From Roseomonas sp. (lineage in GTDB: Bacteria; Pseudomonadota; Alphaproteobacteria; Acetobacterales; Acetobacteraceae), in NCBI GenBank assembly GCA_035565935.1, contig DATMRU010000032.1, forward strand, positions 22,436 to 86,435: a stretch of 64,000 nucleotides of DNA, written 5' to 3'. Under the pieces are notes generated by a model, which was given only the letters and a program-made list of their open reading frames with translations, was not told the DNA's origin and searched no databases. Both the position numbers and the translations under genes were made by a program. Below, piece by piece: positions 6,530 through 35,014 of this stretch (within the stretch, counting starts at the first letter, position 1; every line of letters begins with the position of its first letter).

Positions 6530-6615
6530 CCTCAATTTCGCGGTTGCGCGAAGTTGCCTGGGGGTACGGTCCACGCCGGCCATCCACCAGCTTTCGAGCC
6601 CCCTCCCCCCTGTCC
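6530..6615 (-). other. Probable cos/packaging initiation region
   Basis: Non-coding gap between HNH and terS with minus-strand GGGGGGAGGGGG...GGACCG...CGCGAAATT pattern resembling this interval in HK97-like phages. Confidence 0.5.
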
Positions 6616-6640
6616 TGCCGGTCCGGGAAGAGGCCGGGGA

Positions 6641-13613: not shown

Positions 13614-13885
13614 GCACCTGGTCGCCGGAGCGCCGCGAGGCGCAGGCCGCGCGCATGCGGGCACTCAATGCCGTGCGGCGCGGCCAGATGCCACCCCCGC
13701 CCCCGCCGCCCACCAATCACCGCGACATCCTGGACGAGGCCCGCGAGCTGCTGGCCTCCGGGCTGTCCGTGGTGGAGGTGGCGCAGGCGCTCGACCTCCC
13801 GCGCAACGAGGTCAGCGACCTGAAATTCCGCCTGCAGGAGAACCAGCAGGCGGCCCGCAACGCCAGCCGGAGCCGCAGTCCATGA
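13610..13885 (+). CDS. Small HTH protein
   Basis: ARELLASGLSVVEVAQALDLPRNEVSDLK; ATGA overlaps. Confidence 0.65.
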   Translation: MSTWSPERREAQAARMRALNAVRRGQMPPPPPPPTNHRDILDEARELLASGLSVVEVAQALDLPRNEVSDLKFRLQENQQAARNASRSRSP

Positions 13886-14166
13886 GCGAGGTCATCCACG
13901 ACATCCGACAGAACGACGTGGAGGATACAGAGCCCGGCGGCATCGCCGCCGATCGGCTGCGCTCGATCATCGAACGCGTCGAGCGCCTGGAGGAAGAGCG
14001 CAAAGATCTCGCCGAAGACATCAGGACGATCATGGCAGAGGCCAAGGGTGCCGGCTTCGACCCGAAGGTGGTCCGCCAGATCATCCGGATCCGCAGGCAG
14101 GAACCGGCCAAGGTGGAAGAGCAGGAAACGCTGCTGGACCTCTATCGCCACGCGCTGGGGATGTGA
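13882..14166 (+). CDS. gapR: Phage-encoded GapR (DUF2312) nucleoid-associated protein
   Basis: AADRLRSIIERVERLEEERKDLAEDIRTIMAEAKGAGFDPKVVRQIIRIR...LLDLYRHALGM. Confidence 0.92.
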   Translation: MSEVIHDIRQNDVEDTEPGGIAADRLRSIIERVERLEEERKDLAEDIRTIMAEAKGAGFDPKVVRQIIRIRRQEPAKVEEQETLLDLYRHALGM

Positions 14167-14724: not shown

Positions 14725-14806
14725 CCGCTACCTCTCTGACGCCGTTCACGCCGCCGCCCTGATCGCGAGATTCGCGGAGATGGAGCTGGAGAGGCGCAAT
14801 GGGTGA
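14717..14806 (+). CDS. 29-aa ORF, not in ORF track
   Basis: MADRYLSDAVHAAALIARFAEMELERRNG; overlaps both neighbours by 8 nt. Confidence 0.45.
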   Translation: MADRYLSDAVHAAALIARFAEMELERRNG

Positions 14807-15143
14807 TCGCCTCCAGACCCGCGCAGAGGTCGCCGCCTACTTCCGCATCTCCTACCGTCACTTGCAGGAGATAGAGGTACTTCACGCCGTCCCGGTTCTG
14901 AGACTCGGCCGGGCCATTCGCTATGATCGAGCCGCCCTGGCCCACCTGGAGAACGCCCTTCGATGCCCCTCAAGCTTACCAAGCGCGCCGGCGCGGCCAC
15001 TTGGCAGATTGTCGGCACAGTCGCCGGGCAGCGCGTCCGCCAGTCTGCGGGTACTGCTGACCGACGCCTCGCGGAGGAAGCCAGGGCGGCGCTCGAAGCA
15101 CGCCTCTACCGTGGTGCCGTTTACGGCGAACGGACGGTCGTAA
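14799..15143 (+). CDS. xis: Excisionase (MerR/AlpA-like HTH) overlapping int
   Basis: LQTRAEVAAYFRISYRHL...VLRLGRAIRYDRAAL; directly upstream of integrase. Confidence 0.8.
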   Translation: MGDRLQTRAEVAAYFRISYRHLQEIEVLHAVPVLRLGRAIRYDRAALAHLENALRCPSSLPSAPARPLGRLSAQSPGSASASLRVLLTDASRRKPGRRSKHASTVVPFTANGRS

Positions 15144-16162
15144 CCTGGTCCCAGGCCGCGCTCTCCTACAGTCAGGTTGAGCAGCCGAGCCCGACGACAG
15201 CACGCTACCTGCTCAGGCTAAGCGACCACCTCGGTGACACGCTGTTGAAGGACATTGATCAGGCGGCCCTGGACCGCGCCTGCGCAGCACTGGTCAGACC
15301 GGATGCGGCGCCAGCGACGCGCCTCCGGGCTGTCATCACCCCCCTGCAGGCAGTCTTGAACCATGCAGCTCGGCGGGGCTGGTGCGATCGGCCCATGTTC
15401 GAAAAACCCAAAGGAGCCGGGGGAGTGAAGCGGACGCGATGGCTAACGCCTGAAGAGTACACCGCTCTCCGCGAGGCGGCAGCACCGCATCTCCGGCCTC
15501 TGGTCATCTTCCTGGCCGGCACGGGGGCCCGCCTGAGCGAGGCTCTCGGCCTGCAATGGGCCGACGTGAACCTCCGGCTGGGCACGGCCCTGCTGCGAGA
15601 CACAAAGAACGGTCGCGACCGCCAGGTTGAGCTCCTGCCCGCTGTCGTGGCCGCTATGGCGAGCATCACCTATCCCGTGCGCCAGGAGGATCGGACACTG
15701 GTGGAGGTCGCCGAGCGCACTGGCTCGGTATTCCGTACCAGCGCAGGGCGGCCCTACGCGGAGACAGGCGGCCTTTGGGGTGGACAGATCGCCACGGCCT
15801 GGGCAGGAGCCTGCCGGCGAGCCAGGCTGCCGGGGAGCTGGCGGGAGGGCAAGCCTCGCCGCATCCAGGAGCGCTTGGTAGTGAAGGGTAAGGTCGTGAC
15901 CCGCATCAAGGAGGTCCGGGATCGCTGGTGGCAGCCGGACGATGTGTCGCCGCACACCCTGCGGCACACCTGGGCGACTTGGCACTACGCTGTGCACCGC
16001 GACCTGCTACGCCTGAAGCATGAGGGTGATTGGTCCAGTGTTGGCTTGGTGGAGCGGTACGCGAAGCTTGCACCCTCCGCTGCCGTACCGGCCATTCTAG
16101 TGAGTTGGGGCGCTGCTAGCGCCGATGCTGCCAACCTTGGTCAGCTGCGTAGTGCAATCTGA
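14963..16162 (+). CDS. int: Prophage tyrosine integrase
   Basis: TGARLSEAL (R), TKNG (K), HTLRHTWATW (HxxR), GDWSS...VERYAKL (catalytic Y). Confidence 0.95.
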   Translation: MPLKLTKRAGAATWQIVGTVAGQRVRQSAGTADRRLAEEARAALEARLYRGAVYGERTVVTWSQAALSYSQVEQPSPTTARYLLRLSDHLGDTLLKDIDQAALDRACAALVRPDAAPATRLRAVITPLQAVLNHAARRGWCDRPMFEKPKGAGGVKRTRWLTPEEYTALREAAAPHLRPLVIFLAGTGARLSEALGLQWADVNLRLGTALLRDTKNGRDRQVELLPAVVAAMASITYPVRQEDRTLVEVAERTGSVFRTSAGRPYAETGGLWGGQIATAWAGACRRARLPGSWREGKPRRIQERLVVKGKVVTRIKEVRDRWWQPDDVSPHTLRHTWATWHYAVHRDLLRLKHEGDWSSVGLVERYAKLAPSAAVPAILVSWGAASADAANLGQLRSAI

Positions 16163-16405
16163 GACTGAACAGGGCGCAGATCAGTGAGGAACTGCCGCTT
16201 GCGAAGGTCAGTCACTCCGCTTGCGTGAGATTAAGGCCGCAGCGCAAAACGGACCGCTGCATGTCACTGCCCTGCTCGTCCCTGAACAGTTGCTTCACTG
16301 CAAAAGAACACAACCAACGGAACAACCAGGGGTTCTCTGCTCCTTGTCCCCGAACCAGCTCGGGAGCATCTTGGACGCCAAATCGACTCGTGGACACGGT
16401 CAGGA

Positions 16406-18025
16406 ATGAGGCTGCTGAACATGTTCCGCAAGGAACCCAAAAAGAGTGCCGTTGATCTTCTACAGCAGATCTCAAAACGAGCTGAGGATCTAACTCCTGA
16501 AGAACAAGCAAAAAGCTTTGTTGCCATTCGCCGAATCGATGGAGCTCTGAAGAGTCGAGATAGCCGAGTTATATTTGGCCGAAGAGGCACCGGAAAGACT
16601 CACATCCTCTCATATATGTCCGCTGCGGCAAATGGCCGAGGCGATTTTGCGTGCTCGATCGACCTTCGAACTCTTGGTTCCAACAATTCAATATATTCAG
16701 ATCTCTCTGTTCCGGCGAGCGTCCGCGCAACCACGCTCATTCGAGACCTCTTGTCTAATATACATTTTCGTGTTCTCGACTTCTACACGGATCCGAGGTC
16801 TCGCCTGAATGATAAGGCACTTTATACGGCGATCGAGGGGCTGCAGTCGTGCGTCAAAACTGTAGTTGTGACTGAACAGCAGCAATCCCGGGGCAAGGTC
16901 TCGCGCGCTGACGCCCTGAAGATGCAAGCAGGTGGAGAGGCGAAGCTTTCAGCAGTTACCCTTGAGGCGAGGACCTCGGGAAGCGCGGAGTTTACGTCCA
17001 GTGACGCAGGCGAATGGGAAACCACGATTTCAGGGAAGCCCCGCCTCTCCGTCAACATGGGAGATGCATACACTCAGCTCAATCGAGTGGCATCCTTGCT
17101 TCCTGGCAGGCTCTGGATTCTCCTTGATGAATGGAGTTCATTGCCGGAGACGCTCCAGCCGTACCTGGCGGACTTTATACGGCGCGCAATTTTGCCGGTT
17201 CAGAACGCCAGTGTGTGCATTGCAGCAATTGAGTATCGGTCAAAATTTCGTGCCGACGATGCGGATGATCGCCTTGGACTGGAATTAGGCTCTGACATTG
17301 CAGCCGACATCAACCTAGACGACTATTTTGTGTATGATGTTAGCCCAGATGCTGCCGTCCAGTTCTTTGGCGATTTACTTTATAAGCATCTTAGCGCTTT
17401 TGCTGACCCGGTTGGTTTATCCGAAGGGAGTGCAAAGGCAGTTATCGCCAATGTCTTCTCACAAGACCGGGTATTCGCAGAACTTGTGCGAGCTTCAGAA
17501 GGTGTCGCGCGAGACTTCATAAACATCCTACAGCTCGCGGCCATGCGGTCGGACGATAGCAAAATCACAATGAATGAGGTCCGCACTGCCGCGAAGGATT
17601 GGTTCGAGCGGGACAAGCAGCGCAATCTAGATTCGCGCAAAAATGCACAGGAACTTCTTCAGTGGATTCGGGATGAGGTGATAAGTGGAAAGAAGGCAAG
17701 AGCATTTCTGCTTAACGTATCTGTCTCACATCCTCTGATCGAATTCCTATTCGATGAGCGCATACTTCACATTGCCCGTCGCTCTTACTCTGCCAAAGAT
17801 GATCCGGGAGTCCGTTATCGTGTTTGGAAGGTCGACTACGGATGCTATGTCGACCTAATTAACACTCTCAACAATCCAACGTCCTTCCTCTCTGAGGGCG
17901 TTGTATTTAGCGAGCAAGGCGATCTCATTGTTCCGGACGATGATTATCGCGCTGTGCGCCGGGCTATACTCGACATTGCGGCCTTCGATACTCATACGTC
18001 TTCTGCCAGGGACCCAACATCGTAA
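16406..18025 (+). CDS. Standalone P-loop ATPase (ORC/Cdc6- or STAND-like) moron
   Basis: Walker A IFGRRGTGKT, Walker B WILLDEWS, C-terminal wHTH-like region; visibly more AT-rich than flanks. Confidence 0.8.
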   Translation: MRLLNMFRKEPKKSAVDLLQQISKRAEDLTPEEQAKSFVAIRRIDGALKSRDSRVIFGRRGTGKTHILSYMSAAANGRGDFACSIDLRTLGSNNSIYSDLSVPASVRATTLIRDLLSNIHFRVLDFYTDPRSRLNDKALYTAIEGLQSCVKTVVVTEQQQSRGKVSRADALKMQAGGEAKLSAVTLEARTSGSAEFTSSDAGEWETTISGKPRLSVNMGDAYTQLNRVASLLPGRLWILLDEWSSLPETLQPYLADFIRRAILPVQNASVCIAAIEYRSKFRADDADDRLGLELGSDIAADINLDDYFVYDVSPDAAVQFFGDLLYKHLSAFADPVGLSEGSAKAVIANVFSQDRVFAELVRASEGVARDFINILQLAAMRSDDSKITMNEVRTAAKDWFERDKQRNLDSRKNAQELLQWIRDEVISGKKARAFLLNVSVSHPLIEFLFDERILHIARRSYSAKDDPGVRYRVWKVDYGCYVDLINTLNNPTSFLSEGVVFSEQGDLIVPDDDYRAVRRAILDIAAFDTHTSSARDPTS

Positions 18026-18159
18026 GCGGGGGAGCACCGCGCTTCCAATTTAGGTGTGGCCGCACATCCATCCTTTTCGCGAGGCACATCACTGACACAC
18101 AGTATGCTTAGCCCCACAATAGACTAATGATTCTACGAAAGAATTTCGACAGATGCATG

Positions 18160-18207
18160 CCCTTGCCAAGGTTGGGGTCGAGGGTTCGAATCCCTTCGCC
18201 CGCTCCA
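18160..18207 (+). repeat. att site 1: 3' part of tRNA-Gly(GCC), 48-bp direct repeat copy
   Basis: CCCTTGCCAAGGTTGGGGTCGAGGGTTCGAATCCCTTCGCCCGCTCCA: anticodon loop, T-arm and CCA present, 5' tRNA half absent; identical to 25546-25593. Confidence 0.95.
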
Positions 18208-18280
18208 TCCGATTCCTTAGAAAAATCAGCAAGTTCTGACTTATCCTTGACGGCCCTGCCGGTCAGATCGATTCTGGCCC

Positions 18281-18299
18281 GTCGGGAATTTCGTCGGGA
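18281..18299 (+). repeat. Candidate integrase arm-type sites, left
   Basis: GTCGGGA-N5-GTCGGGA; same arrangement at 25445-25463. Confidence 0.7.
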
Positions 18300-18308
18300 G
18301 TTGCCTCT

Positions 18309-19505
18309 GTGACCGTCTATCGTCGGGAGACGAAGCAGGGCGTCCGCTTCGTTGTGGACTTCTTGGTTGGCGGGCATCGCGTGAACCACACCCTCCGGGG
18401 AGTGGCCAGTATGCGCGAGGCAAAGGCGGCGGAAGCGCGCCTCAAGGAGGAGTACCGGGCACGCCTCAACTCCTCGGGGAGCATCGTCAAGATGACCCTG
18501 GAAACCGCCCTTCAACGGTATGTGGCCGAGCGCCTTAAGCCCAAGGTCCGCAATCCCTCCTCGCTGGCGACCTACCTCACATACCTTTGGATGATCCGTG
18601 ACTTCTTCGGTCCAGGCCGAGACGTGCAGACCATCAACAACGCCGCCGTGGTGGATTGGTGGTCTGCACTGGTTGGAGGAAGCGGGAACAGCAGCCGCAA
18701 GCCAGTCAAGCCCAACACCGCAAAGCGGTATCTCGGGCAACTGAAGGCAGTCCTGGCGTTCGCCCAGGAGGCCGGGGCAGGCAACACCGTCCCCAGTTTC
18801 TCCCCGCAGGTGGCTGATGACAGCCGTGTGCGCTGGCTGACCGACAAGGAGGAAGATGACCTCCTGGGCGCCTCCCCTGGTTGGCTTCGCGACTTCATCG
18901 TCTTCAGTGTCGAGACGGGGGCACGCAAGCAGGAGGCCCTTGGCGTCCGCTGGCGCGACGTTGATCTTGAGATGCAGCCCCGCCCGGTGGTCCGCCTCTA
19001 CCAGACCAAGGGCGGCAAACCCCGTGGCGTCCCCCTGTCGCTGCGTGCGCAGAAGCTCCTTCAGCGCCTCCGACGCTCCCGCCCCGACGCCAGTCCCGAC
19101 GACAAGGTATTGCTGTGGCAGGAGCGATTAGGGCGCGCCCTGGTGCCCCTGGGAGACTTCAAAAAGACCTGGGCTGTGGTGGCGAAGAACGCCAAGGTCG
19201 AGGATGTGCGCCCCCACGACCTTCGCCACACCTTCGCCTCCCGGTTGGTGCTGCGCCGGGTGCCGCTCTATGACGTGAGCAAGTTACTCGGGCATTCCTC
19301 CCTCAAGATGACGATGCGGTATGCCCACCTCGCTCCCGAAAGCCTGAACAACGCGATTGCCGCGCTGGACGAAGGCCACAAGCCTCGCTCATCGCGCGCA
19401 CCCACTCGTTCCGGTTCGGCGCTGTTACGGCGCTCCCCACGGGGCGCGAAAGGAGACGCCGAGGAGGAGGTGGCACTTGAAGGGGCCGAAGGTCCGAGGG
19501 GGTGA
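18309..19505 (+). CDS. int: Tyrosine integrase of element 2
   Basis: ETGARKQEAL, TKGGK, HDLRHTFASRL, LLGHSSLKMTMRYAHL. Confidence 0.95.
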   Translation: MTVYRRETKQGVRFVVDFLVGGHRVNHTLRGVASMREAKAAEARLKEEYRARLNSSGSIVKMTLETALQRYVAERLKPKVRNPSSLATYLTYLWMIRDFFGPGRDVQTINNAAVVDWWSALVGGSGNSSRKPVKPNTAKRYLGQLKAVLAFAQEAGAGNTVPSFSPQVADDSRVRWLTDKEEDDLLGASPGWLRDFIVFSVETGARKQEALGVRWRDVDLEMQPRPVVRLYQTKGGKPRGVPLSLRAQKLLQRLRRSRPDASPDDKVLLWQERLGRALVPLGDFKKTWAVVAKNAKVEDVRPHDLRHTFASRLVLRRVPLYDVSKLLGHSSLKMTMRYAHLAPESLNNAIAALDEGHKPRSSRAPTRSGSALLRRSPRGAKGDAEEEVALEGAEGPRG

Positions 19506-19686
19506 CGATGGCTGTGGCAAGCCTCGCATCCACGTCCTCCGCCCGAAAGCGTGGGCTGCGCGTCCCTGCGGCATAGCTGCGCGGCAACTCAAGACGGTCG
19601 AGTTGCCGTGTGGAGATTCGGAGACGTGCCGCCGCCTCGGCTCGGGTGAGCCAAGGCGATTGCGCCGCTCCGCTAGGCTGAGACAT
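19303..19686 (-). CDS. xis: Excisionase-like HTH protein antisense to int 3' end
   Basis: WLTRAEAAARLRISTRQLDRL...PRFRAEDVDA. Confidence 0.75.
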   Translation of the reverse strand: MSQPSGAAQSPWLTRAEAAARLRISTRQLDRLELPRSYAAGTRSPRFRAEDVDARLATAIVTPSDLRPLQVPPPPRRLLSRPVGSAVTAPNRNEWVRAMSEACGLRPARQSRCSGFRERGGHTASSS

Positions 19687-19706
19687 GCGTCAGCCGGGCG
19701 AACAGT

Positions 19707-20297
19707 TCAGCCGCGCTCGCTCATTTCTCTCTCAGCCCGACGCCGCTGCAAGACGGATAGTTCACGACTGCCTGCTCTAGGATGCTCCACGAGATAGAGG
19801 TTGCTGCGGCGCAGATTCTTCGTGTCGCCGTCGCGGTGGCGCACCGCATAGCCTGGGGGCGCTTCATAAACGAGGCGCCCAATAGACAGCAGACTACCCG
19901 TCGCTTCACTCTTAGGATGGCTACAGCGCACAATCGCCGCTGTCTTCTGGCCGTTGAAGTTCAACATCCACTTGTCAGAAAAGCCTAAGCGCACGACTAA
20001 CTCGTCGTGGGTCTCTACATCGACGCAGGCATATCCGCCGCGTGACAGAGGCACCAGAACGACGAGGCTGCCGTCTGGATCGGTGGTGCGGATCGGCTTG
20101 CGGGAAGAATTGCGTTTCAAAGGTTGGGTTCCGTAAGGACACGCAAAGGCAGCCCGCACGGTGTTCGTGCAGGAGGCCTGATGCGCTGATGTTGGGTTGT
20201 CGGTGTGATTGCGCCGAAACGGGCGCGCCCTCGCCAAGGTGAAAAAAGGCGAGGTAAACTGCGGCGTTGGGGGCGGTTCTGTGCCCCTGAAGGTCAC
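19707..20297 (-). CDS. Degenerate HNH endonuclease-like protein; true start probably downstream
   Basis: VVLVPLSRGGYACVD and VRHRDGDTKNLRRSNL resemble phage HNH_3 proteins. Confidence 0.6.
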   Translation of the reverse strand: MTFRGTEPPPTPQFTSPFFTLARARPFRRNHTDNPTSAHQASCTNTVRAAFACPYGTQPLKRNSSRKPIRTTDPDGSLVVLVPLSRGGYACVDVETHDELVVRLGFSDKWMLNFNGQKTAAIVRCSHPKSEATGSLLSIGRLVYEAPPGYAVRHRDGDTKNLRRSNLYLVEHPRAGSRELSVLQRRRAEREMSERG

Positions 20298-20358
20298 ATT
20301 GTGACGCTACCTCGGGGAACCCCCAGGTTTTCTGCGGCTTTCCCGCTGCGTCTTGCGC

Positions 20359-21114
20359 TCAGAATGCGGGGGTTGGTTCTGCTTCTGGTTCGTCCTCCAT
20401 CGCAGGAATCTCCCAGGGGCCGCCCTCACGAAGCACCTTCAGCGCCTCCTCTGCGAGCGCCACGAGAGCGCCCCGCCAGTGCGGGCAGGTGACCCCTCGG
20501 GATGCCGCAATGGCTCCCCTCAGGGCCGCCTCCGTGTCTTCCGCGAAGGTAGCCGAGGGATCACGCGGGCGAGGATCGGCGCGCTTGTCGCCACCACCTT
20601 GAGAGTACCGTGCTGCCACGTTCGGGAAGTCCTCCCGCATCCACCGCCGGATGCTCTCGTGGCTGATGCCCCCGAGATGGCGGGCAATGTCACGGAGCGG
20701 CATGAGCCGAGTTCTGCCAAGCCGGTATTTCCTGGCACGCACGAAAGCTTGGAAGGCTCGCCGCACCTCCTTGGGCTTCAGCGGGAGGCCATGCGTCAGG
20801 TTTGCCTGGGCAGCGGCCCATACGGCTTCCTCCTCGGTGGCGATGAAGACTTCCGCCTCTATGCGGTCCCTGCCGAGCCGCCGATGGGCCGCCACACGGT
20901 GCCAGCCATCGACCAGCACCAATGCGCCATTCACCATGGCGACCTTCACAGGCGGCAACACGGCATCGTTGCGGAGGGCCAAGCGGTACTTCTCGACAGT
21001 GCCCGCGTCCACGTTCTCGCGGACTTGGAAACGGGAATCCTCCACAAGGTTGTTGAGCGCGACCGTGCGGAGTTCCCCGGCAGGTATTGAGCCTGCGGTG
21101 GGATTGCTTCTCAT
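20359..21114 (-). CDS. ParB/Srx-fold protein with central HTH; no ParA partner
   Basis: FQVRE, LPPVKV, LVDGWHRVAA (GxxRxxA), QANLTHGLPL, HTH PLRDIARHLGGISHESIRRW. Confidence 0.8.
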   Translation of the reverse strand: MRSNPTAGSIPAGELRTVALNNLVEDSRFQVRENVDAGTVEKYRLALRNDAVLPPVKVAMVNGALVLVDGWHRVAAHRRLGRDRIEAEVFIATEEEAVWAAAQANLTHGLPLKPKEVRRAFQAFVRARKYRLGRTRLMPLRDIARHLGGISHESIRRWMREDFPNVAARYSQGGGDKRADPRPRDPSATFAEDTEAALRGAIAASRGVTCPHWRGALVALAEEALKVLREGGPWEIPAMEDEPEAEPTPAF

Positions 21115-21468
21115 GGTGTGGGGTTCTCGTGGAAGGTGGAGGAGCGGGAGGGCGCGTGGAATGCCTCCGCTGCGCAACTACGAAAAACAATGCCACCTCG
21201 CCGGAGGGGACATACGGAGGGCTTCCCCAGGAGCGCCCGCGCAAACACCCCCAGGTGACTCCTCAGGCCGTCCCTGACGGGCTTCCGCAGGCGTTCTGGT
21301 GGGACGGTAGCAGGCGGCCCCTGAGCGGCTCTGGTGAATCCCCTGGGCGTTCCATGGCTGGCCTCGGAAGTCACAGATGCGCTGGCGTGCGTGCCCCTGC
21401 ACATTGGCGCCCCGCTGATGTGGAGCGGAAGGGTAGCCTCAGGAGCGGCCTGCGGAGATCGTGGAGCG

Positions 21469-21930
21469 TTAGACTTGCGGCCCTGCTTTGGCGAATCGGA
21501 TGACTTCCGCATTGTCGCGCAGTTCGCCCCACAGGCTCCGCACCGCATCCTCCACGGTGAGGAACCGCCGCAGCGGATTATGCACGGGACTGCGGATGCC
21601 GACTGTGCCGTCCTCCGCACGGAAGAAGCTGAACCATGGATCAACCCCACTGTCGAACTCCTCATCGTCGCTGGCCACGCGCCGCCGAATCGTCAGCCTC
21701 TCGCTGTGGATGATCTCGGGCCGTTCCCCGTCCGGTCGTGGGCCTTCAACGATGGCTTCCCACGGGCCTAGCGGTAGAAAGCCCGTGGCTGTGTCTGCGG
21801 CTCTCTCGTCGTCTCGGGTGAACGCCGTCTTCGTCAGCCATCTCCCCAATTCCGGGATGGCGGTCCAGCCTCCATACGGGATGCGCGGTGAGTCTGAGGA
21901 CGGCGGCAGGCGGGCGACTTTGGTGGGCAT
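21469..21930 (-). CDS. Hypothetical protein
   Basis: 153 aa, GGAGAAC RBS upstream, same strand as neighbours, globular composition. Confidence 0.6.
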   Translation of the reverse strand: MPTKVARLPPSSDSPRIPYGGWTAIPELGRWLTKTAFTRDDERAADTATGFLPLGPWEAIVEGPRPDGERPEIIHSERLTIRRRVASDDEEFDSGVDPWFSFFRAEDGTVGIRSPVHNPLRRFLTVEDAVRSLWGELRDNAEVIRFAKAGPQV

Positions 21931-22254
21931 GAGTTCTCCTTCGGCCCCGCAGGGGCGCGTTCGTGCAGGGAGACTGGGGGAAAATCCCCATCACTCGCCG
22001 GGGCGTCTTCTGTATGGGTGGGGGATATGGGCAATTCCAGCGGCTTAGCTGTGCGCTATTCCACTGGGGCGTCGGGGGCGTTCACGTTGGCACGCCGCCT
22101 TTCGTGGGAGAGTGAGGGAAAACCCCTGGATCGCCCGGAGATCGGCCTTGAAGCTGGCCTTTCCGACAATCCCTACCGCCTCCGCAGCGGCCCTGCCGCC
22201 GGTGCCCCGGTGGAGCGCCACAGATGATCCCCTGGGCGCCCCCGGTGACGGTCC

Positions 22255-22536
22255 TCAGGCGCGGTGCAGATCGGGCAAGGGCGCCTTGGTGTCGAGGTAG
22301 AAGACCGCGTGACCCATCCGCACGACGAAGCCTTGTCCGCCATACGGATTGCCCGACCGCTCCACCTCTAGCCAGGGATAGCTGGGCATCCGCCGCAGGC
22401 TCCCAGGTTCAATGGCCATGTCGAGGCCGGCAAGGCGGCCCTGGTAACGGGCGAAGCGGAAGGCCGCCCAGGCCGCACGAGCCAGGGTGCCGGTGAGGCG
22501 GGAGAACGTGGTAGGGGTGGTGACAGCCTGAGGCAT
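22255..22536 (-). CDS. Hypothetical protein
   Basis: 93 aa, same strand, plausible composition. Confidence 0.55.
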   Translation of the reverse strand: MPQAVTTPTTFSRLTGTLARAAWAAFRFARYQGRLAGLDMAIEPGSLRRMPSYPWLEVERSGNPYGGQGFVVRMGHAVFYLDTKAPLPDLHRA

Positions 22537-22840
22537 GGGTGCATTCCGTGCTGAAGGTCAGGCCGGGGTTGCGGTCGCACCCGCTTCCCTGGCCGCTATG
22601 CCCTCACCCAGGACCATCCCAGGGCGGGCACGGAGGGAGTCTGACGCCCTCGCGAGTCCGTGAGAAGCGCCATCGTGGGGCCTGGGGGGCATCAACTCCC
22701 GATTGATTGCGCCCGTGACCAGAGAAGCACGCACATCCTCATCATCCCCTTGAGGGAGCATTCCCCGGCTACCCCTCAGGCTGGCCCAGGGAGGCCCCGG
22801 AGGAGCGCCCCAGGGAAGGGCGGGAGGGCGGCACTAGGTT

Positions 22841-22936
22841 TTACGACAGGAGGCCGCCCAGGACAGCAGCCAGGGCCGCCAGCAGCCACGCCACGGAGGC
22901 CAGCATTAGGGCGGCCCATAGGGTGCGGAGGAGCAT
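22841..22936 (-). CDS. 31-aa hydrophobic membrane peptide, not in ORF track
   Basis: MLLRTLWAALMLASVAWLLAALAAVLGGLLS; ATG 3 nt after recombinase stop. Confidence 0.55.
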   Translation of the reverse strand: MLLRTLWAALMLASVAWLLAALAAVLGGLLS

Positions 22937-22939
22937 GGG

Positions 22940-23665
22940 TCAGGCCTCCACCTTGGCCAGCACCCGGCGCACAGCGGTGGCGGTCCACGCGCTGCCCCTG
23001 GGAGTGGTGATCCCCCGCGCCGTCAGGCCTTCCGCCAGTTGCTGAAGGCTAGTCAGGCCCTGTGCTCGCAACTCCTCCACCACCGGGAGGACGCCATGGG
23101 CATGCTGGGAGGAGGCCAGAGAGCGGGCCTGGGCTGACCGCTTGGCCCCAAGGGCGCTCCCCTCAGGCGTGGCAGGGCGGTAGCCCCGATCCCCACCCAG
23201 CTTCACGCCCCGCGCCTTGGCCGCTGCCAGGGCCGCCTTGGTCCGCAGGGAGATACGCCGCGCCTCATCCTCAGCCACGGAGGCGCGGATGTGGAGCATG
23301 AAGGGGTCAGTGTCGGGGAAGTCCGCCGCGATGAAGGGCACGCCCTCCTTCATCAGCCCCGAGATGAAATGAACATCACGGGCCAGGCGGTCCAGCTTGG
23401 CGATCAGCAGCGTGGCCCCGGTGGTGCGGCAAAGAGCCAGCGCCTCGGCCAGCTTGGGGCGGTCACTCCGCTTGCCGCTCTCCACCTCCACGAAGACGGG
23501 CGATAGCAGCCGGTCCCCCGGCAGGAGGAACCCCCGAATGGCCGCCTCCTGGGCCTCCAGGCCAAGGCCAGAGCGCCCCTGCCGCTGCGTGCTGACGCGG
23601 GCATAGGCCACGAAGGTGCGGCCCTTGGCCTGACCCTGCGGGGGCTTCTGGAGGGAGGCGGACAT
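22940..23665 (-). CDS. Serine recombinase (resolvase domain plus short recombinase domain)
   Basis: VAYARVSTQRQG, VEVESGK, IAKLDRLARD, ISLRTKAALAAAKARGVKLG. Confidence 0.93.
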   Translation of the reverse strand: MSASLQKPPQGQAKGRTFVAYARVSTQRQGRSGLGLEAQEAAIRGFLLPGDRLLSPVFVEVESGKRSDRPKLAEALALCRTTGATLLIAKLDRLARDVHFISGLMKEGVPFIAADFPDTDPFMLHIRASVAEDEARRISLRTKAALAAAKARGVKLGGDRGYRPATPEGSALGAKRSAQARSLASSQHAHGVLPVVEELRAQGLTSLQQLAEGLTARGITTPRGSAWTATAVRRVLAKVEA

Positions 23666-24131
23666 GGGCGGCAGCTCCTGAGCGCTCTCGGCGCCTGCGG
23701 TGGTCTTCCTCCACCGTGAGTCCGCAACTTGAGCTTGTCAATTACCTTCAACGTTCGATGCAGCCAAACGACATGGAGCGGTGGCGGGGATGGCGGGGCA
23801 GCATGGGTGCCCAGCCCTACCCCAGGGCCACCCTCAGGAAGCCGCCTGGAGAGTCCGCCAGCACCTCCCACGAAACCAGCCGCTACCGTCCTCCGGCAGC
23901 CGCTCCAGGCCCACACCAGGGCGGCCTGTGGGGGTCTTCAAAGAGGGGGGGCCGGGGGTGGCGGCAAGGGGGGAAGCTGCGCGAAGTGCCCCTAACGCAC
24001 CCCCTCTCGGACATGCGCAATGAAAATTCCGGTTCGTTTTCTGGCATTCACTTCGCAAGCCTGCGAAAACGGCTCCCAGTTTCTGCGGCTCCTCGCTGAC
24101 AAACCAAGGCTCGCCACTTCCCTCGCACGCT

Positions 24132-24620
24132 ATGGCATATGAACCACGCGCCCTCGCGAACCTGCTGCTGGACTTGGCAGACGAGATGCGCCTGCCGCTC
24201 ACCCATATGGCGCTTCATAAGGTCGCCTATTATGCCCATGGCTGGCGGCTGGCCGAGACTGGCTGCCCGCTCCTGACCGAAGAGTTCGAAGCCTGGGAGC
24301 ATGGTCCCGTGCTGCCCACGGTGTATGGCGCGTTCAAGGCAGCGGGCAGGACGCCCATCTCTTTCCGCGCCGAACGGTTCAACCCTGCCACCCAGCAGCG
24401 CAGCGTCGCGAGGGGCAATTTTTCTCCAGCCGACCGTGCATTCTTGCGGAACATCCTGCGTGCCTATGGGCGACTGGATGCCCTCACACTTTCGGACATG
24501 ACGCACCGGAAGGGCGGCCCCTGGGACCGAGTGTGGAACGCGGCAGACGGCAAAATCACCCTGGGCATGAAGATCAAGAACCAGGCGATCAGGGCGGCCT
24601 TCTTGGCTGGGGGTCAGTAG
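24132..24620 (+). CDS. socA: Panacea/DUF4065 antitoxin, SocA-like
   Basis: LTHMALHKVAYYAHGW, FEAWEHGPVLPTVY, LSDMTHRKGGPW. Confidence 0.9.
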   Translation: MAYEPRALANLLLDLADEMRLPLTHMALHKVAYYAHGWRLAETGCPLLTEEFEAWEHGPVLPTVYGAFKAAGRTPISFRAERFNPATQQRSVARGNFSPADRAFLRNILRAYGRLDALTLSDMTHRKGGPWDRVWNAADGKITLGMKIKNQAIRAAFLAGGQ

Positions 24621-24700
24621 CTCGCAAACCCCACAAATCGTTGGCCGTTCTCCTCGCGAATCGGTGCCCTTTCGTCCGAAAAACGGCTAAGATTGTGTTC

Positions 24701-25411
24701 ATGCAGATTCCGGCCCTCCCCCCGTGCCACGATCTTGTTCGTCTGGTTCGCGCGACACAGGACGAGACAACCCACGCGGTCTTGGAACATCTCAAGCGAA
24801 GGCCCACTCCCTGGGGCTACCGTACCGCAAGAGAGCTGGCGCCCCACGCTTTCTCCCCCGAACTCCCCCTTTCTGCTCTCCATCAAGCATGCCTTACGGC
24901 ACGCATGGTACCAGCGGGGAGAGCGGCAAATTGGGAGGTGGTGCAGATGATACGCGCCGCTGGGAAAGGCCGGACGCCCCGGTGTTATGGGATGAACCAT
25001 GGATACCTGCCGATCAGGAAGGACTTGTCCATTCGAGTTGCGGCAGATTTTTACTTCGTCGAAAAGGGGGAGGTTTCCATCTTCTGGCTTCAACCCCGAC
25101 GAGCTTTCGCTCTGGACAACAAACAGCTTGGCATGTTCGGGGCGTTACTTCGGCGGACTCTCCTGACAGGCGACTTCGAAGCGGCCTCGCTTGAGATTCT
25201 TGACCTGAGTGCCCCTGACAGGAAGCAGCGTGTGCCGCGCACGCTTGGATTGTGCGACCTCCCCGAAGTTACCGAGGAGGAGGCTGCGGAGGCAGTCCAG
25301 AGGGTAGTGCAGGCCTATGAGGCTATCCAGAAGATGGACATCAACTGGGATGAGCGGCGCGCGCCGAGGAAAGAGCGTCCTTCTCCTCAGGCCGACATTC
25401 CCGGCCTCTGA
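24701..25411 (+). CDS. socB: SocB-like toxin (putative sliding-clamp/replication inhibitor)
   Basis: LPPCHDLVRL...PWGYRTAR and FWLQPRR pattern resembles SocB as recalled; directly downstream of Panacea antitoxin; start uncertain. Confidence 0.65.
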   Translation: MQIPALPPCHDLVRLVRATQDETTHAVLEHLKRRPTPWGYRTARELAPHAFSPELPLSALHQACLTARMVPAGRAANWEVVQMIRAAGKGRTPRCYGMNHGYLPIRKDLSIRVAADFYFVEKGEVSIFWLQPRRAFALDNKQLGMFGALLRRTLLTGDFEAASLEILDLSAPDRKQRVPRTLGLCDLPEVTEEEAAEAVQRVVQAYEAIQKMDINWDERRAPRKERPSPQADIPGL

Positions 25412-25444
25412 CTGCACGGCTCCCGGCGCTGGCCTGAACGCTGC

Positions 25445-25463
25445 GTCGGGACTTTTGTCGGGA
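25445..25463 (+). repeat. Candidate integrase arm-type sites, right
   Basis: GTCGGGA-N5-GTCGGGA matching 18281-18299. Confidence 0.7.
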
Positions 25464-25508
25464 AATGCTGTCCCAGGGTGACGCTCGGCGTCCATTCGGA
25501 CATCAAGA

Positions 25509-25521
25509 AATCAAAAGCTTA
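25509..25521 (+). promoter_or_regulatory. IHF binding site near right att
   Basis: AATCAA-AAGC-TTA matches WATCAANNNNTTR; near-match AATCAG-CAAG-TTC at 18224-18236 by left att. Confidence 0.65.
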
Positions 25522-25545
25522 GGACGCAGAAGCAAGGGCCACTCT

Positions 25546-25593
25546 CCCTTGCCAAGGTTGGGGTCGAGGGTTCGAATCCCTTCGCCCGCTCCA
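25546..25593 (+). repeat. att site 2: 3' part of tRNA-Gly(GCC)
   Basis: Identical to 18160-18207; no 5' tRNA half. Confidence 0.95.
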
Positions 25594-25625
25594 GTTTTTC
25601 CAAAATTTTCCTGGCGCTATGGTAT

Positions 25626-25654
25626 GGGTCGCGGAAGCGGCCCTTTCTGTTTTT
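25626..25654 (+). terminator. Intrinsic terminator, probably the native tRNA-Gly terminator
   Basis: GGGTCGC-GGAA-GCGGCCC followed by TTTCTGTTTTT. Confidence 0.7.
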
Positions 25655-25803
25655 GGCCTAGTCAGCAGCGCGCAGATTGCGGTGACCAGGGCAGAACGAG
25701 CCCCCGAAGGAACACATCTGGAGGGGCTCTCCGCGTTACTGGGCCACCGGTGCTTTGGCTGGGTACCCAGCAGCACCAGTGAATCGGGTACTCAGGTCAA
25801 TCG

Positions 25804-26439
25804 GTGGAGCATGGCCTCGCCCATCTCAGGATCGTACCAGCTGATATGAATGAGGCCCAGCTGCATGCGGCGGCAGCCAATGGCGACACCGCAACCATCA
25901 AGCATCTCCTTGCCCAGGGCGTGCAGATTGATGCGCGCGATGGCAACGGGCGCACGGCATTGCTCGTCGCCACCCGGGGAAACAGGATCGCCGCCGCCAA
26001 GGCGCTGATCGAGGCGGGCGCCGACGTCAATGCCCAGGACAACATCCAGGATAGCCCCTACCTCTACGCCGGGGCGCGCGGCCACCTTGAAATTCTCAAG
26101 ATGACACTCGCGCACGGTGCCGATCTGAAGAGCACGAACCGCTATGGCGGCACCGCGCTCATTCCCGCCTCCGAGCGCGGCCATGTCGAGGCTGTTCGCA
26201 CGCTGATCGAGGCCGGCGTCGAGGTCGATCACGTCAACAATCTCGGCTGGACCGCTCTTCTGGAGGCGATCATCCTGAGCGATGGTGGGGAGCGGCACCA
26301 GCAGATCGTCCAGGCGCTGGTCGAGGCCAAGGCCAATGTGAACCTCGCCGATGGCAAGGGCATCACACCGCTCCAGCATGCCCGCAGCCGCGGATATATC
26401 AGGATCGAGCAGATCCTGGTGGCGGCCGGTGCGCATTGA
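25804..26439 (+). CDS. Ankyrin repeat protein
   Basis: Repeated GRTALL/GGTALI/GWTALL/GITPL ankyrin starts; alternative start 25846. Confidence 0.93.
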   Translation: MEHGLAHLRIVPADMNEAQLHAAAANGDTATIKHLLAQGVQIDARDGNGRTALLVATRGNRIAAAKALIEAGADVNAQDNIQDSPYLYAGARGHLEILKMTLAHGADLKSTNRYGGTALIPASERGHVEAVRTLIEAGVEVDHVNNLGWTALLEAIILSDGGERHQQIVQALVEAKANVNLADGKGITPLQHARSRGYIRIEQILVAAGAH

Positions 26440-26450
26440 AGAAGACGATC

Positions 26451-26924
26451 ATGAGCGACACTCAACGCTTTCTGTGCCAGGCCATCGAACTCGCGCACGC
26501 CAATCTGAAAGGCGGCGGCCGTCCCTTCGGGGCAGTCGTGGTCAGAAATGGCGAGGTGGTCGCGACCGGCGTGAACGAGATCGTCAGCACCAACGACCCC
26601 ACCGCACATGCAGAGCTGACGGCCATCCGCGCGGCCAGTCGCAGGCTCGGCTCGCCCAGCCTCGAGGGATGCGCCGTCTATGCAAGCGGCCATCCCTGCC
26701 CCATGTGTATGGCCGCGATGCGGTTGGCGGGCGTGAGCGAAGTCTATTACGCTTATTCCAACGACGATGGCGCACCCTACGGCCTCTCCACAGCCGCGAT
26801 CTATGCCGAATTGGCAAAGCCCCTTTCCGAACAGTCGATGAAGATTAGCCATGTGCCGGTCCGCCCGCAGTCCGGCCCCGATCTTTACGCCGAGTGGAAG
26901 AGGAGGCAGGCCGGCCAGGCCTAA
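26451..26924 (+). CDS. Zn-dependent nucleoside/guanine deaminase (CDA family)
   Basis: PFGAVVV, HAE, PCPMC motifs. Confidence 0.9.
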   Translation: MSDTQRFLCQAIELAHANLKGGGRPFGAVVVRNGEVVATGVNEIVSTNDPTAHAELTAIRAASRRLGSPSLEGCAVYASGHPCPMCMAAMRLAGVSEVYYAYSNDDGAPYGLSTAAIYAELAKPLSEQSMKISHVPVRPQSGPDLYAEWKRRQAGQA

Positions 26925-26929
26925 GCGGA

Positions 26930-28141
26930 ATGCCGGCGCAAGATCATCCTCCTTCCCGGCTGCTGCTGCTCGCCGTCGTTGCCTTGGTGGGCCTCAATCT
27001 GAGGCCGTTTCTCACCGGCGTAGGTCCGCTCGCATCGAGCATCAGCGAGGCGACCGGCCTGGATTACCGGGGCCTCTCGTTCCTCACCCTGGTGCCGATG
27101 GTGCTGATGGGTGTGTGCGCCTTCGCGAGCCCCTGGATGCAGCGCGTGATGGGAGCGCGCCGGGCCGTGATCGGAGCACTCCTCGTACTGATGCTGGGAT
27201 GCGCCCTCCGGTTGTTCGCATCGGACGATGGCGCCCTGATCGGAACGGCTGCCCTTTGCGGGCTTGGTGTGGCCGTCGTGCAGGCCGTCTTCCCCGGCGT
27301 CATCAAGGCGCAGTTCCCCCAGCGTGTTGCGCCCGTCATGGGTCTCTATTCGGCCATGCTCATGGGCGGCGGGGCGCTGGGCGCGCAGCTTTCTCCCATC
27401 ATCGCGAACGCGATGGGGAACTGGCACTTCGGCCTCGGCTGGCTGGCGGTGCCGGCGGCGCTCGCCGTCGCGATGTCGGCGTTTCTTCTGCCTCGGTCAG
27501 GGTCGCAGGCCACCGCGTCCCTCAGCACGGCCATGCTGCTCACCCGGCCGCGGACATGGCTGCTGATGACGTATTTCGGCCTGATGAACGGCGGCTATTC
27601 CTCCGTCATCGCCTGGCTGGCGCCCCATTATCAGGCGCTCGGCTGGGCGACGGCTGCGAGCGGGGCCCTCCTGGCCATCATGGCCGCCAGCCAGGCCGTC
27701 TCCGCGCTGTTGATCCCCTTCCTGGCAGCGCGAGGGCAGGACCGGCGTCCCTGGATCTGGCTTACGCTCGCCATGCAGATGGCCGGTTTTGCAGGGCTCG
27801 CATTTTGGCCGCAGACCTCACCCACCGGCTGGGCCGCTCTCGTGGGTGCGGGCCTTGGCGGCTGCTTTGCCTTGTCCATGGTGGTGGCGCTCGATCATCT
27901 CGAGGATCCGGCCAATGCCGGCGCATTATCCGCCCTGATGCAAGGTGGCGGCTTCCTCATTGCCGCGGCTCCGCCCTGGATCGTGGCGATCCTCCATGAG
28001 CGCACCGGCAGCTTTGCCTCAGGCTGGCTCCTGCATCTGGCCTGCGCCGCGCTGGCCGCGGCCCTGGCGCTGCGTTTCGCGCCCCACGGCTATGCGCGAT
28101 CCATGAACATCCTGATTCCCGAAACCCGGCCTGCTGTGTGA
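26930..28141 (+). CDS. CynX/NimT-family MFS transporter
   Basis: LVGLNLRPFLTGVGP N-terminal signature; about 12 TM helices. Confidence 0.88.
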   Translation: MPAQDHPPSRLLLLAVVALVGLNLRPFLTGVGPLASSISEATGLDYRGLSFLTLVPMVLMGVCAFASPWMQRVMGARRAVIGALLVLMLGCALRLFASDDGALIGTAALCGLGVAVVQAVFPGVIKAQFPQRVAPVMGLYSAMLMGGGALGAQLSPIIANAMGNWHFGLGWLAVPAALAVAMSAFLLPRSGSQATASLSTAMLLTRPRTWLLMTYFGLMNGGYSSVIAWLAPHYQALGWATAASGALLAIMAASQAVSALLIPFLAARGQDRRPWIWLTLAMQMAGFAGLAFWPQTSPTGWAALVGAGLGGCFALSMVVALDHLEDPANAGALSALMQGGGFLIAAAPPWIVAILHERTGSFASGWLLHLACAALAAALALRFAPHGYARSMNILIPETRPAV

Positions 28142-33562: not shown

Positions 33563-34174
33563 CCATGATCCTCCAGAATGGAGCCTCGCCGCCCTCATGG
33601 CAGCTGGCCCCGCAGATGGAAACCGGCAGGCACAGGGCAGGCTGGCTGCTCAGGGCAGAAGCCTCAACTCCCTCTCGGAGGCGTCGAAAAAAGATGCTCC
33701 GCTCCAAATGGATAGTCTTTTCGGGAGAAAATGGCGGGTAAAAAGATCAGGAGATAGAGATCAGGTCGCCCTCGCCCTCGGCAAGAATTCGGTGGGATTT
33801 CTGCATCTCAATGCGCAGGAGGAAGTCGTTCTCTGTTTTTGCACACTTTCGGGAAAAGCCTAGGCTGGAGCTTGCGGGGCTCGCTCTCCGAGAGGGGAGG
33901 CTATTCCTCCCTGGCTGGGGGATCACCCGGTTCCCGGTCGTGCACCGCTCACGGGCGGCATCGCCAAACGACGTCCGCCTGCGAAGGGCCGGGCCGCAGA
34001 GGATAACCGGCCGGGCGTGGACGCCGGGCAGCACTACTCAGGCCCTGGGGAAACAGCCGCTCGCCTCCGGCCAGAGGCAGCAGAGGGTGCGCGGCCCGGA
34101 CCCCTGCTCCAGGAACTTTGCAGCGGAAGCGCGGAACCCCCGGTCAATCTCCCGGTTCTAGCGGTTTCGCTGCT

Positions 34175-35014
34175 ATGGTGCTTCGAATGCGCGCGGATCT
34201 GGATTCCTTGGCAAGCGTGGTCCGCGACCGGCGCGCCATCCTCTTCGTCGGCGCCGGGCTTTCCATGTCCGTCGGCCTGCCCTCCTGGCGGCATTTGATC
34301 GAGCATATGGGCGAGGAGCTGGGGCTCGACCCGGCCTGGTTCCTGAGCGCCGACAGCAGCTACCAGACGCTGGCCGAATACTACCGGCTCCGGAAGGGCA
34401 GCATCGGGCCGCTGCGGAGCTGGATGGACCGGAACTGGAGCGTCTCGGAAGAAAGGGTCCGCACCTCACGTGTGCATGAGATCGTCGTCCAGCTCGATTT
34501 TCCCATTATCTACACGACCAACTACGACGCCAATCTCGAGACCGCCTTCCGCATACACGGCCGCGACTATGTGAAGATTGCCAATACGCGGGACATCGCC
34601 AAGGCGAACCACCAGGTCGCGCAGATCATCAAGTATCACGGGGATTTCGAGGACGACCAGTCGCTCGTCATCGCCGAGACCGATTACCTCAACAGGCTGA
34701 GCTTCTCCTCGCCGCTGGACATCAAGCTCTGGGCGGATGCGCTGGGGCGGACGCTGCTGTTCATCGGCTACAGCATGTCGGACCTGAACATCCGGCTGCT
34801 GCTGCACAAGCTCGCCCAGATCTGGCGGGCCTCCGGCTATGAGAAGGACCGGCCCTCGCCCTTCGTCTTCATGCCGCGCCACAATGAGGTGCAGGAGGCC
34901 GTGCTGGGCCAGTGGGGCATCAACGTCATCGCCGGCGACAGCGATGATCCGGAAACCTCGCTGGCCGCCTTCCTGGAGGAGTTGCTGCGACGCGTGCGCG
35001 AGGTGGAGAGCTGA
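34175..35014 (+). CDS. Standalone SIR2-like (SIR2_2) protein
   Basis: LFVGAGLS...LPSW, YTTNYD, IKYHG, LFIGYSMSD. Confidence 0.88.
   Translation: MVLRMRADLDSLASVVRDRRAILFVGAGLSMSVGLPSWRHLIEHMGEELGLDPAWFLSADSSYQTLAEYYRLRKGSIGPLRSWMDRNWSVSEERVRTSRVHEIVVQLDFPIIYTTNYDANLETAFRIHGRDYVKIANTRDIAKANHQVAQIIKYHGDFEDDQSLVIAETDYLNRLSFSSPLDIKLWADALGRTLLFIGYSMSDLNIRLLLHKLAQIWRASGYEKDRPSPFVFMPRHNEVQEAVLGQWGINVIAGDSDDPETSLAAFLEELLRRVREVES

Follow-up and report, generated by a model that had tools for sequence, protein, structure and literature searches.

A small, integrase-bearing islet at a tRNA gene is an already known kind of element. Actinomycete integrative and conjugative elements (AICEs) of the pSAM2/SLP1 type and tycheposons alternate between a circle and a copy integrated at a tRNA 3' end, with modular integrases and cargo; AICEs carry a Rep and an FtsK-like Tra protein, and tycheposons carry primase or helicase modules. 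Here we describe a 7.4-kb islet of this general kind, the element at positions 18160–25593 of a 64-kb window (the whole stretch of DNA that was analysed), itself part of a 527-kb contig in a Roseomonas sp. metagenome-assembled genome (MAG) from soil. The element has what is generic to tRNA-integrated elements, namely repeats of a tRNA 3' end, an integrase gene next to the attachment site (att) and an empty site in another metagenome contig (L131), but the Rep, FtsK-like Tra, primase and helicase modules of AICEs and tycheposons are not present in it. Phage-inducible chromosomal islands (PICIs), P4-like satellites and phage-inducible chromosomal island-like elements (PLEs) resemble it in being small, in integrating site-specifically and in needing a helper for transfer; however, these satellites have replication genes (pri-rep, the alpha primase-helicase and RepA) and packaging or capsid genes (terS/ppi/cpm and sid/psu/delta), and none of either sort was found in the window element. 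Specifically, pri-rep was absent from its 20 open reading frames (ORFs; Pfam) and from its called genes (PHROGs, NCBIfam), as were terS, ppi and cpm, and neither the alpha primase-helicase, sid/psu/delta nor the helper cos site of P4-like satellites was detected. Pfam, PHROGs and NCBIfam scans of the element revealed no relaxase or Mob domain.

Two further groups are also comparable with the locus. Virion-encapsidated integrative mobile elements (VEIMEs; Eppley et al. 2022, PMC9618062) are small and integrative, many of them alphaproteobacterial, and more than 80% have an integrase gene; some subgroups combine a tyrosine integrase with a serine recombinase, their module 2 contains HNH endonucleases, some have plasmid-like partition or replication genes, and many are without a known replication gene. 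VEIMEs are, however, marine and defined by recovery from virus particles, whereas the family of the window element was found in bulk-metagenome contigs from soil and rhizosphere and in isolate genomes, and the likeness is one of published description. The PICMIs of Vibrionaceae (phage-inducible chromosomal minimalist islands; PMC10803314) share with the window element a minimal size of about 6 kb, an int gene with a small regulator, defence cargo and the lack of capsid-remodelling and terS genes. They need int, AlpA and a primase (DUF3987/DUF5906) and are integrated next to fis, whereas the window element has no primase, an Xis-like fold only, tRNA-Gly as its target, and a ParB-like protein and a serine recombinase as its markers. 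An initial annotation, made from the sequence alone, had held that the element follows no PICI, P4 or integrative mobilisable element (IME) layout, and it indeed fits none of the PICI, P4, PLE, PICMI and relaxase-carrying IME layouts; its statement that no primase or Rep, capsid, terminase or relaxase gene is recognisable agrees with our scans of the 20 ORFs (Pfam) and of the called genes (PHROGs, NCBIfam, PADLOC). We read the element, with a probability of roughly 55%, as a small integrating episome, at present quiescent in an intact integrated copy and dependent on a helper for transfer.

The element is delimited by an exact direct repeat of 48 nt, the longest direct repeat of the window, whose two copies are spaced by 7,386 bp and enclose 7,338 bp of unique DNA. 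A 25-nt sub-pattern of this repeat, allowing up to three mismatches, matched the window at the two repeat copies only, with 0 matches expected by chance. The features of the ends and of the integration module are as follows.

18160–18207, plus strand: left att core, exact 48-nt repeat, 47 nt of which equal the 3' part of the L131 tRNA-Gly
18280–18299, plus strand: arm-type motif CGTCGGGAATTTCGTCGGGA, 72 nt inside the left core, candidate P' arm
18309–19505, plus strand: tyrosine integrase, 398 aa (Pfam Phage_integrase E 9.5e-29; phrog_1 E 4e-60), called in both assemblies of the element (L001, L002)
19303–19686, minus strand: candidate excisionase (recombination directionality factor), Xis-like by its predicted winged-helix fold, with the tail of the ORF antisense to the 3' end of int
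25444–25463, plus strand: arm-type motif CGTCGGGACTTTTGTCGGGA, 82 nt inside the right core, second and last copy in the window, candidate P arm
25546–25593, plus strand: right att core (attR), the original tRNA-Gly 3' end followed by chromosomal flank, from the exact repeat and the L131 match

ARAGORN found zero whole tRNAs in the window and no tRNA 5' half at 18160–18207, and an Rfam scan of window 16000–27000 gave no match. The source of the repeat was found in L131, a Joint Genome Institute (JGI) metagenome contig reached through an ankyrin protein that it encodes exactly as at window 25846–26439. L131 contains an intact tRNA-Gly(GCC) whose last 47 nt are identical to 18161–18207 and to 25547–25593, and behind this tRNA the right flank of the window, from 25547 onward, continues at 99.65% identity over 1,426 nt. 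Since the tRNA 3' part matches 47 nt, from the anticodon stem to the CCA, all but the first C of the 48-nt repeat is tRNA-derived. L131 is an empty site, in which the tRNA-Gly of a related strain is uninterrupted and both the prophage left of 18160 and the element are missing; as it joins the intact tRNA-Gly and the same right flank to a left flank without a match in the known 88 kb of the source contig, the insertion in the window is a discrete one. In two other contigs, L130 and L132, this right flank is preceded by a tRNA end that is different and degenerate, so that L131, L130/L132 and the window together represent at least three states of this tRNA-Gly site. The sequences before the flank in these two contigs (L130:1–588 and L132:1–1078) belong to a different occupant of the site in other strains, which ends in the degenerate tRNA 3' fragment GGGTTCCCATCGCTGCTCCA. 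An exact search of JGI metagenomes for the right junction of the element gave no match. In the window, 18160–18207 is the attL of the element and, by inference, also the attR of the prophage on its left side.

The exact repeat, ARAGORN and L131 all bear out the earlier observation of two identical 48-bp tRNA-Gly 3' fragments, neither with a 5' half, and the empty site, the identical repeats, the paired arm motif and the retained catalytic motifs likewise uphold the proposal that the tandem array at tRNA-Gly contains an element that is discrete and intact. The full tRNA had been placed to the left of the window; this agrees with the empty site of L131, but its position was not shown as far as the source contig reaches, because neither tRNA-Gly nor a third att copy, nor any alternative att for the prophage, was found leftward up to the contig end, which lies 24,053 bp left of the window and falls inside an ORF.

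The gene calls of the element agree between two independent assemblies. The integrase gene starts 102 nt from the left core and its motifs TGARxxE, HDLRHT and RYAH are readable in the sequence, as the earlier assignment of int had it. The 20-nt pattern CGTCGGGAnTTTnGTCGGGA that describes the arm-type motif has 2 copies in 64 kb, both inside the element ends, where 0 are expected by chance; its placement is that expected of attP arm-type sites, and the two copies are probably binding sites of the integrase or of Xis. The Xis-like ORF, named xis in the initial annotation, has no match in Pfam, NCBIfam or PDB sequences, so that its support lies at the level of the fold: in a single-sequence AlphaFold2 (AF2) model the predicted local distance difference test (pLDDT) score is 85–91 at residues 11–60, the elements are ordered b-a-a-b-b-a, and the N-terminal ~60 aa are predicted to form a winged helix, the best fold matches being BldC, RacA, the RdfS excisionase, Pukovnik Xis and Tn916 Xis at weak E values of 0.01–0.5. 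Because the 48-bp repeats are exact, the arm motif is paired, the integrase and recombinase motifs are whole and an Xis-like fold is predicted, we regard the element as intact.

Between the integration module and the right end lie the following genes.

19707–20297, minus strand: HNH_3-like protein, 196 aa (cluster c5), Pfam HNH_3 E 2.6e-5, below cut-off
20359–21114, minus strand: protein with ParB/Srx N-domain, helix-turn-helix (HTH) and C-terminal helical hairpin, 251 aa, phrog_1033 E 2.9e-15, family marker
21469–21930, minus strand: orphan ORF, 153 aa (p153), called in L001 and L002, possibly not a gene
22255–22536, minus strand: ORF, 93 aa, called in L001 and L002, no family-library match
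22841–22936, minus strand: hydrophobic ORF, 31 aa, sequence MLLRTLWAALMLASVAWLLAALAAVLGGLLS, called in L001 and L002, directly downstream of the recombinase gene
22940–23665, minus strand: short serine recombinase, 241 aa (cluster c1), Pfam Resolvase E 4.4e-24, HTH_62, Recombinase, second family marker
24132–24620, plus strand: SocA-type (Panacea domain) antitoxin, 162 aa, Pfam SocA_Panacea E 3.6e-20
24947–25411, plus strand: candidate toxin, weakly SocB-like, 154 aa, downstream of the antitoxin gene, called in L001 and L002

The ParB-like protein carries the motif DGWHR at the position of the GERRxR box of ParB, and a profile built from 25 homologues matches Noc, ParB and Srx in the PDB. Its AF2 model (pLDDT 86) retrieves Noc, ParB, KorB and PadC with Foldseek, which suggests the architecture of Noc, ParB and KorB, that is, an N-domain, an HTH and a dimerisation-like hairpin. 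The protein is 37–69% identical to 24 homologues, among which DGWHR and a second motif, ANLTHGLPLK, are invariant; against 50,697 phage records it gave three weak partial matches only. The short serine recombinase consists of a catalytic domain with the YARVSTxxQ motif, HTH_62 and the start of the 'Recombinase' domain, without a zinc ribbon, and is 46–73% identical to the recombinases that adjoin ParB-like genes in six other loci (L012, L014–L017 and L026). Both genes had been named correctly in the initial annotation, the one now backed by the PHROG match and by the structural matches to Noc, ParB and KorB, the other by its Pfam score. The neighbouring HNH-like gene, in comparison, keeps its Pfam match, but this is weak and the domain degenerate: homologues adjoin the ParB-like gene in L014, L015, L017 and L021 and conserve only the motif DGDxxNLRRxNL and not the first His, so that the protein probably lacks nuclease activity. 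As to the proposed toxin–antitoxin (TA) genes, a candidate type VI SocAB pair, the SocA/Panacea assignment is clear, although the NCBIfam SocA_antitoxin match (E 1.3e-46, 158 bits) is below its cut-off of 190 bits; the SocB-like toxin is weak (NCBIfam SocB_toxin E 0.0019, 17 bits, far below the cut-off of 210). Searched against 1.84 billion representative proteins, p153 matched itself alone, and it had no family-library match. No protein of the element matched a PADLOC defence-system model, and no promoters, terminators, iterons or tandem repeats above chance were seen in the element.

The two markers define a family. As its criterion we used a protein with a ParB N-domain and an HTH containing DGWHR and ANLTHGLPLK, together with a serine recombinase of 200–283 aa in the same small element; the window element has both. 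A word-indexed search returned 42 proteins of the ParB-like family, and a scan of one GTDB genome per species found homologues in 21 alphaproteobacterial genomes, among the genera Roseomonas, Neoroseomonas, Magnetospirillum, Microvirga, Xanthobacter, Rhodopseudomonas, Rhizobium and Sphingomonas; a metagenome scan added 51 clear members. Among isolates, N. marina JC162, N. terrae LMG 31159 and Roseomonas sp. CAU 1739 each carry a member. The search for the same gene set in other genomes, which had been proposed at the outset as a check, thus yielded 21 genome loci and 51 metagenome members with the ParB-like gene. Among loci of at least 6 kb, the short serine recombinase was present in 15 of 18 from genomes and in 15 of 18 from metagenomes, and an integrase in 16 of 18 of each. 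Most elements measure 5–8 kb, and sizes reach 13 kb with restriction-modification (R-M) cargo, type I systems being carried by the larger members L012, L019, L024 and L027. Direct repeats of 17–27 bp bound relatives of 5.9–13.3 kb. Tyrosine integrases of the DUF6538 type place relatives at tRNA-Thr, Glu, Leu, Phe, Ser and Arg, and large serine recombinases of others split comM; integrases and targets are interchangeable across the family. The gene just upstream of the ParB-like gene varies as well, coding for an RNase H-domain protein, an unknown protein, a T7_gp14-family protein or an HNH-like protein. A fixed order of the ParB-like and recombinase genes had to be rejected as a family trait: in the window the recombinase gene precedes those for the ParB-like and HNH-like proteins on the strand opposite to int, whereas most relatives have int, sometimes HNH, ParB-like and recombinase genes on one strand. 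In no member scanned was a Rep, relaxase or capsid gene recognisable. A full-text literature search found no paper that describes a ParB-like protein combined with a short serine recombinase; in the literature searched, this core gene pair, the absence of a known replication or transfer gene and the breadth of the apparently unnamed family seem to be undescribed.

These relatives also bear on whether the window holds a living element. Were the repeats the bounds of an immobile, decaying fragment of a larger island, one would expect ORFs without relatives, such as the orphan p153, the lack of an iteron array and a single-copy depth, all of which are found; however, the 48-bp repeats are identical and the arm motifs paired, all conserved genes are full length with their catalytic motifs, size and gene set match intact relatives bounded by repeats of their own, and the agreement of the right flank with the empty site is exact, beginning at the core. 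We consider an immobile remnant very improbable.

The tandem position raised the possibility, put forward in the initial annotation, that the element depends on the neighbouring phage. The large prophage left of 18160 has its capsid, protease, portal and large and small terminase subunit (TerL, TerS) genes on the minus strand, DnaB, a repressor-like HTH protein and an integrase (14963–16162) with 43.5% identity to the integrase of Acetobacter phage phiAX1; farther left follow a contractile tail and a baseplate of the Mu type (L003, L046, L048). At window 6010–6979, minus strand, an HNH endonuclease gene (6641–6979) immediately precedes the TerS, TerL, portal, protease and capsid genes, which is an HK97-type cos packaging module. 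Under this explanation induction of the HK97-head, Mu-tail myovirus would be accompanied by excision of the element, which the HNH-TerS-TerL machinery would package into phage capsids. It would suit an element without transfer genes of its own that adjoins an apparently complete prophage with a cos-type packaging module, and whose size is within the range of minimal satellites such as the 6.1-kb PICMI (PMC10803314). However, comparison of the element with 28 kb of the prophage revealed no shared DNA beyond att (the best match was 37 nt at 84%, E 0.03) and no shared cos or operator sequence, with nothing near the HNH/TerS region; as there is no such common sequence, no cos mimic was detected. 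Genes for TerS, capsid size or interference are missing from the element, its integrase and that of the prophage share only 27% identity, and its depth (~11x) does not differ from the depths at the prophage end and in the chromosome (~8–13x), about one copy per chromosome. A soil metatranscriptome (X4) contains short low-depth contigs identical to window 17650–17808 (in an ATPase gene left of the element), 18378–18528 (int) and 25721–25948 (right flank), a weak hint of transcription, or of DNA carry-over.

Tandem arrangements with another integrase or prophage recur in L032 and L034, but both come from a virus-enriched collection and are thus selected for viral neighbours. In L034:5616–15196, from an isolate genome in that collection, the layout is window-like at tRNA-Thr: a prophage integrase is followed by a tRNA 3' fragment, a family element (DUF6538 integrase, recombinase and ParB-like gene, the latter matching in three separate pieces and possibly disrupted) and a second tRNA fragment 9.55 kb on. 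The eight genome relatives bounded by a tRNA and a direct repeat, in comparison, show no phage structural genes in the fetched flanks, and most family members are without an adjacent prophage. Because these tests show no link, the tandem array is best explained by two elements that use the same 47-nt tRNA core and not by a functional tie, so the suggested dependence on the neighbouring phage finds no support and a satellite of this prophage is improbable. A new satellite type, the other half of that proposal, is possible but unproven, a recurrent family of small integrating episomes being better supported.

If the window element is such an episome, Int together with the Xis-like winged helix would excise it as a 7,386-bp circle whose attP consists of the core flanked by both arm motifs. 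By analogy to plasmids, the ParB-like protein may then bind the DNA of the circle in a partition or centromere role or, like KorB, as a silencer, and the serine recombinase may resolve multimers as it does on small plasmids; the SocA/SocB-like pair would stabilise the element or act against phage. Replication would proceed through an unrecognised initiator or host functions, and transfer between cells would need a helper, be it a phage, a conjugative element or another agent.

The ParB-like/recombinase pair occurs on extrachromosomal DNA too, as the following two molecules reveal. Contig L062 (8,644 bp) has a 133-bp terminal overlap, and the resulting 8,511-bp circle was closed independently by Logan contigs of two rhizosphere runs at depths of 135–170x and 12–15x, with no chromosomal junction at comparable depth in the two runs. 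It encodes a tyrosine integrase, the ParB-like protein, the short recombinase and an ORC/CDC6-like ATPase that is 47% identical to the ATPase left of the window element. Upstream of its ParB operon, at 4184–4913, are ~18 iteron-like repeats of ~40 nt, and at least 5 repeats of 38–43 nt occupy the same place in another member (L016:884–1516); judged from their sequence, these arrays, seen in L062 and L016, are candidate origins or ParB-binding centromeres and perhaps not family-defining. The second molecule is the 3,454-bp Roseomonas marmotae plasmid p1318-9 (NZ_CP061100.1), which codes only for a resolvase, a DnaD-like HTH protein and a ParB-like protein. It resembles the window element in having, in the same genus, the same ParB-like family (35% identical over the N-domain and HTH) next to a serine recombinase; unlike the element, it has no integrase or att, its resolvase is of the classic HTH_7 type (only 32% identical over the catalytic domain), and it has in the DnaD-like protein a candidate initiator that the element lacks. 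A 7,397-bp Logan contig (L002) at first looked like a circle of the window element itself, but is simply the element, which k=31 assembly had cut at the 48-bp repeat.

Several observations weigh against reading the window element as an episome. No joint of 25545 to 18208, as excision would produce, was present in the contigs of runs X1 and X2, and the depth of ~11x compares with ~10x for the chromosome, although contigs drop rare variants and this negative is thus weak. The maintenance roles of the ParB-like protein and the recombinase are analogies to plasmid and circle, and no ParA partner is present; as DGWHR replaces the CTP-binding GERRxR box, clamp activity of the ParB-like protein is doubtful. 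A recognisable Rep is missing from every family member examined and, unlike L062 and L016, the window element has no iteron-like array that we could find. Finally, p1318-9 bears a 'linear' flag in PLSDB and has no terminal overlap.

The helper could also be another phage, possibly a virulent one, which would make the element a satellite like PICMIs or marine VEIMEs, spread by concatemer packaging; the ParB-HTH protein with its HNH-like partner would then be the DNA-recognition part of packaging or a helper-sensing switch. Evidence for this comes from an uncultured Rhodospirillales MAG, where the 7.6-kb element of L005, which splits comM, encodes, directly upstream of its ParB-like gene, an 81-aa small terminase subunit of the T7 gp18 type (9745–9990; Pfam E 1.9e-13, phrog_891 E 2e-8), present at the same place in L013. 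A T7_gp14-family protein occurs in four members (Pfam E 1.9e-10), and induced replication would be consistent with the very high depth at which the L062 circle occurs. However, the TerS homologue is confined to this one lineage, and the gp14 match is weak as phage evidence because PHROGs gave nothing. No member has the primase or AlpA core of PICMIs (PMC10803314), full-length family matches in IMG/VR lie inside 16–47-kb contigs and not in small stand-alone ones, the family was sampled from bulk soil and rhizosphere metagenomes and isolate genomes, not viromes, and the ParB-like protein has only the three phage matches given above. A satellite of another phage is a live rival, albeit a doubtful one, because one member has a TerS homologue and because VEIMEs (PMC9618062) and PICMIs (PMC10803314) are similar elements.

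An IME, the excised form of which is nicked at a mimic of the origin of transfer (oriT) by a conjugative plasmid or integrative and conjugative element of the host and then transferred, seems unlikely. The element does consist of an excision/integration module and cargo without transfer genes, which is the general layout of relaxase-less IMEs of the MGI (mobilisable genomic island) and SGI1 (Salmonella genomic island 1) types, and Alphaproteobacteria are rich in conjugative replicons; however, no member scanned has a relaxase, a coupling protein or a MobI-like gene, and p1318-9 is typed as non-mobilisable in PLSDB.

Only tentatively do we extend the episome reading to the family as a whole, as a new class of minimal hitcher that alternates between integration at a tRNA gene or comM and a high-copy circle, replicates without any known Rep and spreads by phage packaging. 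Replication might occur through the ParB-like protein on iterons, or by priming from transcription and RNase H, and the ParB-HTH protein, with its HNH-like partner or, in some members, TerS, would redirect the terminase of a helper.

Other observations concern the surroundings of the element. Between the prophage integrase and the att core, at window 16406–18025, plus strand, is a low-GC (51–55%) gene for an ORC/CDC6-like P-loop ATPase, which weakly matches an Sll1717-family ATPase, an 'anti-phage protein' model and PADLOC mad8; its full-length homologue on the free 8.5-kb circle L062 is the one mentioned above, and the gene could be defence cargo or related to replication. The prophage also encodes a GapR-type DNA-binding protein and, just upstream of its integrase, a small ORF (13882–14166 and 14799–15143, plus strand), the small ORF sharing the HTH signature 'TRAEvAAyxRIS' with the Xis-like ORF of the element. 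To the right of 25593 follow ordinary chromosomal genes (ankyrin, deaminase, major facilitator superfamily transporter). Farther on, a 960-aa protein in which an AMP-binding enzyme is fused to a carrier-protein domain and a membrane acyltransferase_3 domain (30716–33598, minus strand) adjoins a FUSC-family protein, and an isolated SIR2_2-domain gene (34118–35014, plus strand; E 2.8e-25), near a lower-GC stretch at ~33.6–34.1 kb, may be a stand-alone defence gene.

For annotation, the boundary of the prophage is 18160, and the following 7.4 kb is a separate element. Many genomic islands have no known means of transfer, and a compact family in soil Alphaproteobacteria makes the minimal needs of a hitcher testable; with its interchangeable integrases, detectable free circles of relatives and no recognisable replication or transfer gene, it offers a tractable model. 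The defence-type cargo of the family, type I R-M systems and the SocAB-like TA pair, bears on how defence genes move. If the family does prove to be a class of minimal hitchers, it would stand beside PICMIs and VEIMEs as their counterpart in soil Alphaproteobacteria, built on a different core.

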